Origin: Candidatus Iainarchaeum sp.
Lineage (GTDB): Archaea > B1Sed10-29 > WALL01
Reading direction: 5' to 3'
Length of the DNA stretch: 64,000 bases
Assembly: GCA_021162685.1 (NCBI GenBank)
Contig: JAGGYF010000028.1
Coordinates: 1 to 64,000, forward strand
Of the stretch, positions 20,749 through 41,360 are shown in pieces. The notes beneath the pieces were generated by a model. The model ran no database searches. It was not told the DNA's origin and saw nothing but the letters and a program-made list of their open reading frames with translations. How positions within the stretch are numbered: the stretch's first letter is position 1; the number at the start of each line of letters is the position of its first letter. The position numbers and the translations under genes were made by a program.

Positions 20749-21331
20749 GCACTATTTTACTGAGGAACCTACAAGTAAATTAAGAAAGAAAACGATCATC
20801 ATAGAAGTAAATGGAAAAATGTTGGAACTAGAAACTGCGTCTGGTGTTTTTTCATTCGGAAAGCCAGATACTGGTACACTGACATTAATAAGGTACATGG
20901 AACTCCCAAAACATGGAAAGATTTTGGACATAGGATGTGGCTACGGAATCATAGGGATTGTTGCTGCACTTGAAACAGATTGTGATGTTACAATGAGCGA
21001 TGTAAACAAAAGGGCATTGATGCTTGCAAAGAAAAACGCAAAAATGAATGGAGTTAATGTTAGAATTGTCCATAGTAATCTATTTGAAAACATTAACGAG
21101 ATGTTTGAGTGTATACTATCAAACCCTCCAATATCTGCTGGAAAGGATATTGTTTTCAAACTGATAGAACAATCATTTGAACATCTGAACAAGGATGGAA
21201 CATTACAGATTGTAGCAAGATCGAAAAAAGGAGGGAGAAGTATAAAACAGAAGATGGAAGAGGTATTTGGAAACGTAGAAACTATAGGGAGGCAATCTGG
21301 TTTCCATGTGTATAAATCTATAAAGTATTAA
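20741..21331 (+). CDS. RsmC-like small methyltransferase
   Basis: EHYFTE.P, SGVFS...D.GT, LDIGCGYG, SNPP..AGK. Confidence 0.9.
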   Translation: MAEHYFTEEPTSKLRKKTIIIEVNGKMLELETASGVFSFGKPDTGTLTLIRYMELPKHGKILDIGCGYGIIGIVAALETDCDVTMSDVNKRALMLAKKNAKMNGVNVRIVHSNLFENINEMFECILSNPPISAGKDIVFKLIEQSFEHLNKDGTLQIVARSKKGGRSIKQKMEEVFGNVETIGRQSGFHVYKSIKY

Positions 21332-21394
21332 TAGAGCAAAACACAAAAGGTATGAGGTTTCGGGATACACCTGCTACTACCATAGAAATCATTG

Positions 21395-21411
21395 AAGCTG
21401 GGGTCGCATAG
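21395..21411 (+). repeat. 17-bp duplication of the tRNA-Ser 5' end
   Basis: AAGCTGGGGTCGCATAG at 21395-21411 is identical to 21471-21487 (2 upstream bases plus tRNA positions 1-15). Confidence 0.95.
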
Positions 21412-21463
21412 GCCCAAATTACATATGGGCGTTCGTAGTGGGATACAAGATCCCACTATTAGA
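21412..21463 (+). repeat. structured tRNA-associated repeat, copy A
   Basis: GCCCA-AATTACATA-TGGGC GTTCG TAGTGGGAT-ACAAG-ATCCCACTA TTAGA; homologous to the copies at 41134 and 41249. Confidence 0.92.
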
Positions 21464-21472
21464 AAACCATAA

Positions 21473-21556
21473 GCTGGGGTCGCATAGCCTGGTAGTGCGC
21501 AGGCCTGGAGAGCCTGTTTCCTTCGGGATGCGTGGGTTCAAATCCCACCCCCAGCG
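21473..21556 (+). tRNA. tRNA-Ser(GGA)
   Basis: Acceptor GCTGGGG/CCCCAGC, anticodon arm CAGGC-CTGGAGA-GCCTG, long variable arm, T arm GTGGG-TTCAAAT-CCCAC, G73; CCA not encoded. Confidence 0.97.
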
Positions 21557-21650
21557 CTCTACTACTGGAGCTAATAGCGCCAAGAGAACCAAAAGCAATA
21601 TAAACAATTATTGTATAAACTTATAACGTATAATTTTATAAGGTGATTGA

Positions 21651-21923
21651 ATGGCAACTGCTCAGCAAGTACTGCATTATCCAAGGCTTGACACCGTGCT
21701 CATGATAGAAGATGCAATAAAGAAGGCAGGGGAGTATCCAACGAAAACACAACTGTGGAGAAGCCTTCCGAGGCAGGTGATGTACCGCACCTTCAACCTA
21801 GTTCTTGATTACTTGGAAAGTTCTGGGAAGATTTTGATTGACACAGATGGGAGGATTGTCTGGGTGTTTGCCGACAACCCAAAGCTCAGGAAACTTATCA
21901 AGGAAAGTGTGAAGGTGCGCTGA
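21651..21923 (+). CDS. putative winged-helix antitoxin
   Basis: HYPRLDTVLMIE, KTQLWRSLP..VMY.TF...LDYLE.SGKI; TGATG-coupled to a downstream toxin-like gene. Confidence 0.7.
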   Translation: MATAQQVLHYPRLDTVLMIEDAIKKAGEYPTKTQLWRSLPRQVMYRTFNLVLDYLESSGKILIDTDGRIVWVFADNPKLRKLIKESVKVR

Positions 21924-22267
21924 TGTACAGCGTGAAGCTGAGCCCAGAATTCAACAAAGAGTTTGCGAAGCTGCAGCAAAGAGCAGAGAAAGGTGGCGGA
22001 GAGGCCACTTATCTCATGAAAATAGTCAACAAAGGAATCTCAAGGATTGCCACGAAACTCACTGTAGGAAAGAAAGTTCCCAAAAAGCTCTGGCCAAAAG
22101 GATACATCAAAAAGTATGGCATAACTAACCTCTGGAAACTGGACTTGGACAAGCACTGGCGGATGCTTTACACGATAACCGGAGACCAGGCAGAACTCAT
22201 TGGAATCGTTCTGGATGTTATGGACCACAAGAAGTACGATAGGAAATTTGGGTACAAGACCAGCTAA
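21923..22267 (+). CDS. putative RelE-like toxin
   Basis: Basic; YGITNLWKLDL...WRMLYTI...LDVMDHKKYDRKFGY. Confidence 0.7.
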   Translation: MYSVKLSPEFNKEFAKLQQRAEKGGGEATYLMKIVNKGISRIATKLTVGKKVPKKLWPKGYIKKYGITNLWKLDLDKHWRMLYTITGDQAELIGIVLDVMDHKKYDRKFGYKTS

Positions 22268-22390
22268 CTCTTGGCACCGCTATACGGCATAGCGTAGCAC
22301 CTGGCAATTTTCCCATAAAATTGCGTGCCCCAGCGCTCTTTAAAGAACGTAATTCAATATAAATTGTTACAAATTATGATTGGTGGTGGA

Positions 22391-22636
22391 ATGACCCAGG
22401 TTGTCGTAACACTAAACAAGGAACTAGATAAAGTAGTGGGCATAATTAAAAGCATGTACGGTTTCTCATCCAAGAACAAAGCAATACAATTCATAATCAG
22501 GAGGGAAGCTGAGGAGCTTCTTGAGAAAGAACTAAGACCTGAGTTCGTGCAGAGGATATTGAGGTTGGAGAGAACTGGTAGGTTTAAGAAGTATGCTTCT
22601 TTAGATGAATTAAGGGATGAGGTAGAGTATGCATAA
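22391..22636 (+). CDS. antitoxin, DUF2683-like
   Basis: MTQVVV...VVGIIKSMYG.S.KN.AI...ELRPEFV; acidic C-terminus overlaps the toxin remnant start. Confidence 0.7.
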   Translation: MTQVVVTLNKELDKVVGIIKSMYGFSSKNKAIQFIIRREAEELLEKELRPEFVQRILRLERTGRFKKYASLDELRDEVEYA

Positions 22637-35470: not shown

Positions 35471-37534
35471 ATGGTTATGCCTGAGAAGATACGAAAAAGG
35501 GATGGGAGTGTTGTAAAATTTGACCAGAGGAGGATAACAAAGGCCATAGAAAGAGCAATAAAAGCCATAGGAAAAAAGGATGGAAAACTTGCTAAAAAAC
35601 TCTCGGATAGGGTTGTCAAAAAACTTGGAAAGGTAAAAATCACAACAGTTGAGAGGGTACAAGACGTTGTTGAAGAAGTTTTGGTGGAGTACGGCAATGT
35701 AAAACTTGTGAGAGCGTATATTAGGTACAGATACCAACATGAAAAACTTAGAAAAACAAAGAGCCTATTTGAAGAAACCGATAAAATCATTGATAGTTAT
35801 CTGAAACAAAAGGATTGGAGAGTTAGGGAAAACAGTAACATCACGTATTCATTTGCTGGGCTCGTCATGTATGTATCAAATGCAGCAATTGCAAACTACA
35901 CTCTTGATAGAATCTATCCAGCGGAGATATCAAAAGCGCACAAATCAGGAGATATACACATACATGACTTACAGTTCGGATTAACAGGCTATTGCGCTGG
36001 TTGGTCACTAAAACAATTATTGCTTGATGGATTTGGTGGAGTTCCTGGAAGAACATCATCAAAGCCTGCAAAGCACTTTGATACCGCATTGTTGCAGATG
36101 GTGAACTTTTTAGGTACGCTACAAAATGAATGGGCTGGAGCAATGGCATTTAGCTCTGTTGACACATACCTAGCACCATTTGTAGCCAAAGATAAACTCA
36201 GCTATAAGCAAGTACTCCAGGGCATGCAGAAGTTCATTTTCAATCTGAATATAACATCAAGGTGGGGCGGGCAGACACTATTCACAAATGTTACATTTGA
36301 TTGGAAAGCACCAGAAGACCTAAGAGAAGAGCACATTATTATCGGAGGCAAACAATTAAGGCAGACATATGGCGAGTTCCAAGATGAAATGGACATGATA
36401 AACAAGGCATTCATAGAGATCATGATGCAAGGAGATGCAAATGGAAGACCTTTCACTTTCCCAATACCAACATATAACATAACAAAAGAATTTGATTGGA
36501 ATTCAGAAAATGCTGATCTACTGTTTGAGATGACAGCAAAATATGGGCTGCCCTACTTCTCAAACTTTGTTAATAGTGACTTGGATCCAAAAGATATACG
36601 AAGCATGTGCTGCCACCTCAGACTGGATTTGAGACAACTTGAGAGGAATATCACTGGTGGATTATTTGGCTCTGCTGAACTTACTGGTTCTGTTGGCGTT
36701 GTAACCATAAATATGCCAAGGATTGGGTATCTGAGCAAAGATGAGGTAGAATTTTTTGAGAGACTTGATAAACTTATGGAGATAGCAAAAAACTCATTAG
36801 AGATAAAAAGAAAGGTTGTAGCAAGAAACATGGAAAATGGGTTGTTGCCATACTCAAAACGGTATTTGGGCAGTCTAGCAAACCACTTCTCAACTATTGG
36901 TCTTGTGGGAATGAATGAGGCTTGCCTTAATCTCTTCGGAAAGGACATAAGTACCAAAAAGGGAAAAGCATTTGCTGAAAGAACATTGAAACACATGCTT
37001 GAAAGATTGAAGGATTTCCAGGAAGAAACAGGAAACCTCTACAATCTAGAAGCAACACCTGCAGAAGGGTCATCATATAGATTGGCTTATCTTGACAAAA
37101 AGAAGTATCCAAAGATCATCACAGCAAGTAAGGAAGTTCCTAGATATACAAACTCAACGTGGCTGCCTGTGGATAAAACAGACGACGTTATCTATGCGCT
37201 AAAACATCAAGAAGCATTACAAACATTGTATACTGGTGGTACTGTTTTCCATGCATTTTTTGGAGAACGATTGAATAGCGGGAAGGCATGTAAGCGATTT
37301 GTTAAAAAGGTCATGTATAAAACAAGGATTCCATACCTAACAGTTACACCAACATTTAGTATTTGCCAGGAGCATGGATACATTGTTGGTGAAGAAAAAA
37401 CCTGTCCTATATGCGGAAAAGAAACAGAGGTGTATAGTAGAGTTGTTGGATATTTCAGACCAGTAAAGGATTGGAACCCTGGGAAGCAGCAGGAATTCAA
37501 GGAGAGAAAAACATACAATCCAAAGAAGGCGTAG
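35471..37534 (+). CDS. nrdD: anaerobic ribonucleoside-triphosphate reductase (class III) with ATP-cone
   Basis: KRDG ATP cone, IHIHDL, RSMCC.L, EATPAE, YSRVVGYFRPV glycyl-radical motif. Confidence 0.97.
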   Translation: MVMPEKIRKRDGSVVKFDQRRITKAIERAIKAIGKKDGKLAKKLSDRVVKKLGKVKITTVERVQDVVEEVLVEYGNVKLVRAYIRYRYQHEKLRKTKSLFEETDKIIDSYLKQKDWRVRENSNITYSFAGLVMYVSNAAIANYTLDRIYPAEISKAHKSGDIHIHDLQFGLTGYCAGWSLKQLLLDGFGGVPGRTSSKPAKHFDTALLQMVNFLGTLQNEWAGAMAFSSVDTYLAPFVAKDKLSYKQVLQGMQKFIFNLNITSRWGGQTLFTNVTFDWKAPEDLREEHIIIGGKQLRQTYGEFQDEMDMINKAFIEIMMQGDANGRPFTFPIPTYNITKEFDWNSENADLLFEMTAKYGLPYFSNFVNSDLDPKDIRSMCCHLRLDLRQLERNITGGLFGSAELTGSVGVVTINMPRIGYLSKDEVEFFERLDKLMEIAKNSLEIKRKVVARNMENGLLPYSKRYLGSLANHFSTIGLVGMNEACLNLFGKDISTKKGKAFAERTLKHMLERLKDFQEETGNLYNLEATPAEGSSYRLAYLDKKKYPKIITASKEVPRYTNSTWLPVDKTDDVIYALKHQEALQTLYTGGTVFHAFFGERLNSGKACKRFVKKVMYKTRIPYLTVTPTFSICQEHGYIVGEEKTCPICGKETEVYSRVVGYFRPVKDWNPGKQQEFKERKTYNPKKA

Positions 37535-41012: not shown

Positions 41013-41131
41013 GCGGGGGTGCCGGAGCCTCCCTCGTGCCTTCATTGGCACGAAGGCTCAAGTGGTCAAACGGGCAGGATTGAGGGTCCTGTGGCTTAGT
41101 GCCTGCGCGAGTTCGAAGCTCGTCCCCCGCA
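41013..41131 (+). tRNA. tRNA-Leu(GAG) with 33-nt D-loop intron (41030-41062)
   Basis: Acceptor GCGGGGG/CCCCCGC, anticodon arm CAGGA-TTGAGGG-TCCTG, long variable arm. Removing 41030-41062 restores the canonical D-loop GAGCCTGGTCAAA; a BHB-like fold is possible. Confidence 0.92.
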
Positions 41132-41360
41132 CTGACCAAATTACATATGGTCGTTCGTGGTGGGATACAAGATCCCACTTACAGCAGGAGGGGGTGTGGA
41201 ATCCGAGGGTTTCCAGGGGGAACCTGGGTTCCCCATAAAGGACGCTCTGACCAAATTACATATGGTCGTTCGTGGTGTGGCATAAAGCCACACTATTAGA
41301 GGGGGATGTGCCCCCATAAAGGACGCTCTTCGAAGCTCGTCCCCCGCACTGACCAAATTA
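41112..41360 (+). repeat. two tandem structured repeat units bracketed by a 32-bp direct repeat containing the tRNA-Leu 3' end
   Basis: TTCGAAGCTCGTCCCCCGCACTGACCAAATTA at 41112-41143 and 41329-41360; units at 41134-41248 and 41249-41329. Confidence 0.93.

Follow-up and report, generated by a model that had tools for sequence, protein, structure and literature searches.

A probable two-hairpin mini-insertion between duplicated 5′ ends of a tRNA-Ser(GGA) gene in a Candidatus Iainarchaeum genome

Why should an archaeal tRNA-Ser(GGA) gene that is complete in itself be preceded, a short distance upstream, by a second copy of its own 5′ end, and what is the structured sequence that separates the two? 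The locus lies in the window analyzed here, namely the first 64,000 nucleotides (nt) of contig C15 of a Candidatus Iainarchaeum sp. genome (G000:C15:1–64000), a 98%-complete DPANN archaeal bin of 1.11 Mb in 45 contigs with 39.6% G+C; other contigs of this genome are cited below by their C numbers and related genomes by G numbers. The original prediction had described a 17-nt repeat that occurs twice at a distance of 76 nt with hairpins in between, and exact matching bears this out: the direct repeat AAGCTGGGGTCGCATAG has exactly two copies, at 21395–21411 and 21471–21487, which are identical at 17/17 positions with a start-to-start spacing of 76 nt, and none is expected by chance (100 shuffles). 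The intact tRNA-Ser(GGA) gene occupies 21473–21557 (ARAGORN; Rfam tRNA RF00005, 57.2 bits), and the repeat therefore comprises two leader bases plus tRNA positions 1–15, ending in the D-loop. The insert proper is a non-coding stretch of 59 nt (21412–21470) composed of a first hairpin (M1), a GTTCG linker, a second hairpin (M2) and a tail. We propose, at a probability of roughly 60%, that it is a non-autonomous hairpin mini-insertion and that the flanking repeats are target duplications made by an activity acting in trans. The 59 nt themselves are best read as one copy of a genus-specific, non-coding two-hairpin repeat within a mosaic family. The features of the locus are as follows.

21395–21411, plus strand: left repeat copy, a displaced fragment covering tRNA-Ser positions −2 to 15 up to the D-loop end (17/17 identity)
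21412–21430, plus strand: hairpin M1, 5-bp stem GCCCA/TGGGC and 9-nt loop AATTACATA (predicted fold, alignment)
21431–21435, plus strand: linker GTTCG, kept in 12/13 aligned copies
21436–21458, plus strand: hairpin M2, 9-bp stem TAGTGGGAT/ATCCCACTA and loop ACAAG (predicted fold, alignment)
21459–21470, plus strand: tail TTAGAAAACCAT, 12 nt, present after M2 in most copies regardless of what comes next (alignment)
21471–21487, plus strand: right repeat copy, the two leader bases and tRNA positions 1–15, within the functional gene
21473–21557, plus strand: tRNA-Ser(GGA), intact (ARAGORN, Rfam RF00005, cloverleaf fold)

The two hairpins constitute the predicted fold of the insert (−22 kcal/mol, z −5.1), and in a 166-nt context the minimum-energy fold forms the cloverleaf with the downstream, second copy of the repeat. 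Three other identities were considered for the insert and rejected: a tRNA pseudogene composed of the fragment, M1 and M2, as no 3′ acceptor strand follows M2; a C/D-box or H/ACA small RNA, as inspection by eye found no boxes in M1–M2; and a promoter role for the M2 loop or the tail, whose spacing to the tRNA start, again judged by eye, is inconsistent between loci. As a separate observation, the M2 stem (GTGGGAT/ATCCCAC) has GTGGG/CCCAC in common with the T-stem of both tRNA-Ser genes (window 21429–21444 and 21542–21557).

Is the unit confined to this locus? A covariance model of M1–M2 (R1), for which 13 uninterrupted copies were aligned, has 23 matches in the genome at the cut-off of E ≤ 5e-8, and the 15-nt motif occurs in 16 exact copies plus one with a single mismatch. 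Sixteen of the 23 matches are tRNA-linked, that is, they lie at most 250 nt from a tRNA gene or inside one, in a zone that makes up only 2.06% of the genome (binomial 7.5e-21, the copies not being independent), and all 16 are on the strand of the tRNA. The linked copies belong to five tRNA-Leu, two tRNA-Ser, two tRNA-Ala, a tRNA-His and a tRNA-Ile gene, as well as to the intron of tRNA-Arg(UCU). M1 is found downstream of every one of the five tRNA-Leu genes, 2 nt past the gene in four of them and after two further inserts in the fifth (C20). Targeting is not exclusive to tRNAs, since seven of the 23 matches lack a tRNA gene on the same contig at a distance of up to 250 nt: four stand behind protein genes or in module stacks (C13, C14, C24 twice and C31 among them) and two lie on the tRNA-less contigs C3 and C41. 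The C41 match, at the start of its contig, overlaps with the end of C19 and repeats the tRNA-Ile-linked copy found there, and the family thus amounts to 22 distinct copies. The covariance model and the genome-wide check for tRNA linkage had both been suggested with the original prediction, which had set scatter without tRNA association against its own reading. On the protein-coding side, reverse-sense M1–M2 copies stand behind the stop codon of three paralogous genes (C31:1–500, C13:1–300 and C24:1600–2300), and on C31, beyond M1–M2 as seen from the gene, the final 15 codons recur as an imperfect 45-nt copy with 6 differences.

How the copies are distributed becomes clearer when the tRNA genes themselves are considered. 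Among the 41 tRNA genes of the genome (Infernal and ARAGORN calls plus a hand-found tRNA-Leu(GAG)), all of which were scanned for copies of their own ends, seven have an exact 15–41-nt copy of their own 5′ end located 64–200 nt upstream and stopping at position 13–17 in the D-loop, namely Ser(GGA), Ser(GCU), His, Ala(GGC), Pro(UGG), Pro(CGG) and Thr(CGU), and 4/41 have one or two downstream copies of their own 3′ end, starting in the T-loop. About a quarter of the set (11/41) carries fresh hairpin-module inserts at D-loop or T-loop positions, and these inserts are M1–M2 or one of three further modules, M3 (in either orientation), M4 and E5. M1–M2 lies between the duplications at Ser(GGA), Ser(GCU) and His and, in a diverged form (M1′–M2′), at Ala(GGC); M3 occurs reverse-complemented at Pro(UGG), Pro(CGG) and Thr(CGU) and forward at Leu(GAG) and at the tRNA at C31:16089; and E5, whose last 29 nt are identical, is found at Leu(CAA) and Leu(UAG), at tRNA-Ser(GCU) of G003 and at a fourth tRNA tail in a public metagenome-assembled genome (MAG). 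Because one and the same module stands between different, locus-specific duplications, the duplications derive from the target and not from the element. The GACGCT end of M3 always joins the loop position, with the module forward at T-loops and reverse-complemented at D-loops, which on our own reading is a single geometry seen on opposite strands. The modules also nest within one another, as on C26, where M4 sits in the M2 loop with a 13-nt duplication, TCGTAGTGTGGCA.

Comparison with five genomes of the same family (95 ARAGORN tRNA calls in 49 loci, some of which overlap) adds evidence from orthologous positions. G002, G004 and G005 represent empty sites, as their methyltransferase-to-tRNA-Ser(GGA) spacer lacks a 5′ duplication, and in G003 the spacer contains a 27-nt 5′ duplication around a different, M4-like insert. 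Across the 95 tRNA calls there are 17 T-loop or T-stem 3′ duplications around hairpin-rich inserts of 60–190 nt and two 5′ duplications, one of which, at tRNA-Thr(CGU) of G004, comprises three copies of positions 1–20; an additional 5′ duplication was recognized by eye at tRNA-Arg(CCU) of G002. The remark in the original prediction that a duplicated 5′ end is unusual is in keeping with these counts. Its central claim, a tRNA-targeting miniature mobile element that leaves the tRNA intact, likewise agrees with a multi-copy, tRNA-linked family that is flanked by locus-specific duplications, at seven 5′ ends and four 3′ ends, and faces empty orthologous sites. With regard to E5, its 24-nt core has five matches in three public MAGs labelled Candidatus Iainarchaeum, some of them directly before a tRNA or a gene, and its motif has 0 matches in viral contigs; the E5 palindrome may be a promoter-proximal repeat or one that resembles the repetitive extragenic palindromic (REP) sequences.

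Within the window, the family is represented at a second tRNA locus. The motif CCAAATTACATATGG occurs three times (21414, 41136 and 41251) versus 0.21 occurrences expected, and the two occurrences beyond the tRNA-Ser locus fall into a stack of modules behind tRNA-Leu(GAG), a gene that ARAGORN and Rfam miss by default because of its D-loop intron of ~33 nt. The stack is organized as follows.

41013–41132, plus strand: tRNA-Leu(GAG) with the ~33-nt D-loop intron (about 41030–41062), called tRNA-Leu(gag) after scripted intron removal
41134–41248, plus strand: unit a, made of M1 (stem GACCA/TGGTC), M2 and a short M3 module ending GGACGCTCT (R1 74.6 bits)
41249–41328, plus strand: unit b, made of M1, the M2 variant GTGTGGC/GCCACAC and a mini M3 ending GGACGCTCT (R1 77.8 bits)
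41329–41360, plus strand: displaced tRNA-Leu 3′-end copy, from the T-loop to 12 nt past the gene, closing the stack (32/32 identical to 41112–41143)

The motif had been predicted to recur at tRNA-Leu with a double compensatory change in the M1 stem. It is indeed present there, in two copies rather than one, both of them downstream of the gene, and both sides of the stem have changed, in only one base pair, from C-G to A-U.

Is M1–M2 maintained as an RNA? Over the 13 aligned copies 95.4% of the cells are paired and 5/14 pairs have changed on both sides; the covariation score was reached by 0/500 shuffles, and slid controls were 31–49% paired. In the M1 helix 98.2% of the cells are paired and pair 2 reads AU in five, CG in five and UA in one of 11 distinct rows; in the M2 helix 4/9 pairs change on both sides between subfamilies; and the M1 loop is invariant in 11/13 copies. 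Helices kept by compensatory changes around a constant loop, the shared strand of all 16 tRNA-linked copies and the tRNAs, and the recurrence of M1 behind all five tRNA-Leu genes would fit a functional structured RNA in pre-tRNA leaders or trailers that is freed by RNase P or RNase Z, with the duplications being incidental. The original prediction had offered a functional RNA as its alternative. We do not favor it and regard it as distinctly unlikely, as M2 is split by an M4 insertion in four copies, copies of opposite sense lie behind the protein genes on C13, C24 and C31, and the minus strand of M1–M2 folds almost equally well, as expected of a DNA palindrome. Furthermore, R1 has 0 matches in the five same-family genomes and weak ones, mostly to part of the model, in 6/60 relatives (best E 9.4e-5). 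Nor is there a match to a known RNA family: at the gathering scores of Rfam 15 only the two tRNAs match in the window, leaving M1–M2 unmatched, and at E ≤ 10 the best sub-threshold matches (E 4.8 and 0.16) are to unrelated families. The exact 22-nt motif has 0 matches in public genome contigs and metagenome contigs, from which the genome's own records may be excluded, and one-mismatch matches to the motif in 3/40 relatives were dismissed as lying in unrelated coding contexts without the second hairpin.

Could the 76 nt instead be a D-loop intron, with the first repeat copy serving as the 5′ exon and the remainder removed by the splicing endonuclease? Non-canonical D-loop introns exist at nearly the same position in tRNA-Leu(GAG) and tRNA-Arg(UCU), and the latter gene (C30:9705–9912, minus strand) has two intervening sequences: a D-loop stretch of ~62 nt, the 5′ part of which is a repeat with 11 matches in the relative G006, and a canonical intron of 70 nt, inside which lies a diverged M1′–M2′ copy with an 11-nt internal direct repeat. 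In G008, the intron of the orthologous gene is just 17 nt long. The downstream tRNA-Ser(GGA) gene, however, is complete without splicing, which renders an intron at this locus highly improbable; a bulge-helix-bulge scan gave nothing convincing and is uninformative, since it also missed the known D-loop intron that served as positive control. As for other introns, tRNA-Arg(CCU) (C7:1–200 and G002:C14) has a long anticodon-loop intron with GATGA and TGATGA-like boxes, which by eye recall a C/D-box guide RNA.

A further possibility is that nothing was inserted and that an element already present upstream was copied together with tRNA positions 1–15 by slippage or unequal recombination. The sequence in question is the stretch 5′ of the left repeat copy.

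21332–21394, plus strand: spacer that follows the upstream methyltransferase-like open reading frame (ORF; stop codon 21331)

Outside the 17-nt repeat, 30/59 aligned columns are identical between this spacer and 21412–21470, including GGGATACA, a resemblance that is weak and suggestive only; to judge from the alignment, the spacer may be an older, decayed copy of the M1–M2 unit. Two fresh units stand in tandem at tRNA-Ser(GCU), and M1′–M2′ abuts tRNA-Ala(CGC) with no duplication of the tRNA, arrangements that a local tandem duplication would also accommodate. At His, Ala(GGC), Pro(UGG) and Pro(CGG), in contrast, the left copy is preceded by unique promoter-like sequence and not by a unit; the 17-nt repeat is perfect, whereas the putative older unit is ~50% identical; and the same geometry recurs with unrelated inserts. 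We accordingly consider tandem duplication without insertion very unlikely.

Repeats of this kind also raise the question of whether the arrangement is an artefact of assembling a repeat-rich metagenome bin. Many contigs end inside these repeats, the whole repeat is spanned by no independent contig, and at the end of C12 a further Ser fragment is joined to M1. There (36189–36339), M4, half of M2, the tail, a 5′ fragment of tRNA-Ser(GGA) and the start of M1 follow one another; the fragment is here in its third copy, which either stems from a variant strain or is a piece scattered to another locus. Logan contigs over 21100–21800 are ~3x deep and fragmentary, broken in the repeat and without joints. 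An artefact is nonetheless scarcely credible, given that 17-nt repeats 76 nt apart lie below typical assembly k-mers, that the architecture was assembled independently at six other tRNAs and in other genomes, and that an exact 47-nt Logan contig covers the junction from the tail to the tRNA. A contig from a second study joins the tRNA-Ser fragment to M1–M2 with three differences.

Which activity, then, moved the modules? Under classical site-specific integration, the repeats would be attL and attR blocks of attachment (att) sites and the inserts minimal or decayed elements, akin to cis-mobilizable elements (CIMEs), moved or left behind by tyrosine integrases that plasmids or viruses encode. 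The 3′ duplications start within the T-loop or T-stem and extend past the gene end, the T-loop is reportedly the textbook sublocation for integration into tRNA genes, and the right ends of several inserts mimic a T-stem or T-loop. Integrases matching PF00589 are encoded in 3/12 genomes of the order, all three within the same family (3/5 relatives; Pfam 5.2e-24). In G002 (C12:73500–93499), tRNA-Thr(CGU) is followed by at least seven copies of its 3′ end over 18 kb, an array that holds an AAA/DUF4143 ATPase gene, tandem mini units of ~170 nt and, directly behind one of the copies, the gene of a 389-aa integrase; and tRNA-flanked islands of 2.7 kb with toxin-antitoxin genes occur in the genome under study. 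Yet modules with identical ends are flanked by different, locus-specific repeats at three to four tRNAs each, which would require repeated re-tailoring of attP, and a unit of 59–76 bp is presumably too small to circularize and synapse. In addition, the tRNA-Ser copy is a 5′ end cut at D-loop 15/16 and not a 3′ part, the 3′ arrangement being seen at the tRNA-Leu locus, and the genome has no PF00589 match and hence no XerA-like gene, as opposed to PF00589 matches in 14/14 control genomes. On balance, we find this explanation unlikely for the tRNA-Ser insert.

Two neighborhoods are described here for completeness. The stretch C17:230–2995 runs for 2.7 kb from tRNA-Thr(CGU) to a second copy of its 3′ end and holds genes for a ParE toxin and a nucleotidyltransferase-domain protein and no integrase. 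Just 3′ of tRNA-Ser(GGA), the small ORFs at 21651–22636 comprise one for a DUF2683 protein and one that weakly resembles a ParE toxin, at E 3.7e-4 and short of the cut-off, among others; these ORFs may be the remnant of an island on the 3′ side of the gene, and no 3′ duplication of tRNA-Ser(GGA) was found beside them.

Returning to the proposal of a hairpin mini-insertion moved in trans, several observations weigh against it. Searches of the genome with PF00589, PF01867, PF01797, PF00078, PF00239 and PF01548 gave 0 matches, with no integrase, Cas1, Y1 transposase, reverse transcriptase, resolvase or IS110 gene found, and PF07282 gave sub-threshold matches only. Duplication lengths are variable (15–41 nt for the 5′-end copies, 32 nt for the tRNA-Leu 3′-end copy and 13 nt for the nested M4), and we know of no characterized transposase that variable target duplications of 13–45 nt would fit. 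The T-loop sublocation and the relatives' integrases beside tRNA-end arrays point to classical integrases for the 3′ events at least. The M1–M2 copies are nearly identical (effective number of sequences 3.95); two or three subfamilies thus supply the covariation, and it does not distinguish palindromic DNA from stems in RNA. No Logan contig spans 21395–21487, and mobility is a conclusion that we infer from comparative anatomy. Finally, the claim of a promoter and leader is based on TATA-like boxes read by eye. As to the element's own ends and possible helpers, no inverted repeat links the two ends of the M1–M2 unit, and the sole insertion sequence (IS)-like gene of the genome, one DDE_Tnp_1, has flanking inverted repeats unlike M1 or M2 and no R1 match on its contig; a known Rfam family or IS end, either of which would have spoken against the original prediction, was thus not encountered.

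The following mechanism would account for the pattern. The modules would insert at the DNA level into loop positions of hairpin-forming targets, namely the D-loop (positions 13–21) and T-loop (54–57) of tRNA genes, the loops of other modules and the last codons of protein genes. Each insertion would duplicate the stretch from the insertion point to the gene end or beyond, such that one complete gene copy survives and the event is rendered harmless; at tRNA-Ser(GGA), the insertion point would be D-loop 15/16 and the duplication would cover −2 to +15. The duplications would represent target-site duplications generated by staggered cutting or copying rather than att sequences carried by the element, and the modules would be moved in trans by an enzyme other than a recognizable integrase, Cas1, Y1 transposase, reverse transcriptase, resolvase or IS110 protein of this genome. 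The fragment and the element may then be transcribed from the native promoter as a long 5′ leader that RNase P would remove; at Ala, His and Pro, the TATA-like boxes stand upstream of the first copy, the fragment, which makes transcription of fragment plus insert as a leader probable.

A bolder claim, which we put forward as speculative and rather doubtful, is that the modules are a new kind of mobile DNA that combines hairpin-loop insertion with long, variable target duplications and needs no known recombinase, transposase, Cas1 or reverse transcriptase family. Such DNA might draw on a nuclease or repair enzyme of the host, or on factors of tRNA processing, and the modules could supply raw material for non-canonical tRNA introns, long leaders and scattered fragments, the last being a first step to split tRNAs. 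M1′–M2′ occurs in three settings, as a 5′ insertion in the D-loop at tRNA-Ala(GGC), as a leader at tRNA-Ala(CGC) and within the canonical intron of tRNA-Arg(UCU). Archaeal tRNA genes are well known for being interrupted by introns in unusual places, for being split and for being permuted, and modules that are truly mobile on their own terms would offer a specific path, open to testing, that leads from mobile DNA to tRNA introns and fragments; they would also hint at a chemistry of insertion, with target duplications that are long and variable, of which no description is known. For annotation, it is relevant that many tRNA genes of DPANN archaea have such fragments and long leaders around them and that default tools overlook genes with introns, tRNA-Leu(GAG) being an example. 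Literature and preprint searches found no description of gene-less hairpin mini-insertions in DPANN archaea; what we consider new is the 5′/D-loop variant at seven tRNAs of one genome, the orientation rule and the occurrence of the module family inside a canonical intron.

How does the family compare with known systems? MITEs (miniature inverted-repeat transposable elements), REP sequences and the bacterial interspersed mosaic elements (BIMEs) associated with them, and Rickettsia palindromic elements can sit inside genes without killing them, and the modules resemble all of these in being small and structured, in lacking autonomy, in occurring in many copies and in their mosaic, nested build. 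A MITE is bounded by terminal inverted repeats and by a short duplication whose length is fixed, whereas M1–M2 lacks terminal inverted repeats, the duplications vary between 13 and 45 nt, and no partner transposase with the same ends was found in the genome. REPs make no duplication and depend on a Y1 enzyme, the REP-associated tyrosine transposase (RAYT); here, unlike in REPs and palindrome-associated transposable elements (PATEs) of the IS200/IS605 type, duplications are present, and PF01797 has 0 matches in the genome. Cas1-type integration, as in the repeats of CRISPR (clustered regularly interspaced short palindromic repeats) loci and in casposons, yields long target duplications from two distant, staggered attacks, and casposons favor tRNA 3′ ends. 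The long duplications are a point of likeness; the differences are that no Cas1 (PF01867) was found in the genome, that terminal inverted repeats are missing and that the duplication length is not fixed. Retroposition of the kind used by short interspersed elements (SINEs) differs in turn, as the PF00078 reverse transcriptase has 0 matches in the genome. The tyrosine-integrase att duplications share with our loci the direct repeats of tRNA ends, the restored gene, the T-loop boundary and the hot-spot arrays, and relatives encode such integrases; in contrast to those elements, the repeats here are target-specific and surround identical gene-less modules of 50–190 nt, the tRNA-Ser case is at the 5′ end and D-loop, and no integrase was found in the genome.

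Transposed tRNA introns of the Thermoproteales are said to place related short sequences at loop positions of several tRNA genes. The modules resemble them in that one family copy lies in the canonical intron of tRNA-Arg(UCU), and differ in that the tRNA-Ser copy is most probably not an intron, the duplication having placed its insert beyond the mature gene. Goswami et al. (2026 preprint) describe it as an open question how introns reach archaeal tRNA genes. That integration leaves tRNA fragments behind is well known, as van der Gulik et al. (2023, PMC9897764) set out. The nearest published case is the tRNA-Thr(GGU) gene of Caldiarchaeum subterraneum, for which Sugahara et al. (2012, PMC3293823) describe a 5′ fragment (positions 1–27) and a 1.87-kb insertion with a recombinase-like ORF, together with an intron that came along, and read the arrangement as a mobile-element event that disrupted and scattered tRNA pieces. 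Both loci have a 5′ tRNA fragment upstream of a complete gene with a repeated insertion sequence in between; what sets the present locus apart is a gene-less insert of 59 nt, a fragment that stops at position 15, recurrence of the arrangement at seven tRNAs and a tRNA gene that is itself uninterrupted.

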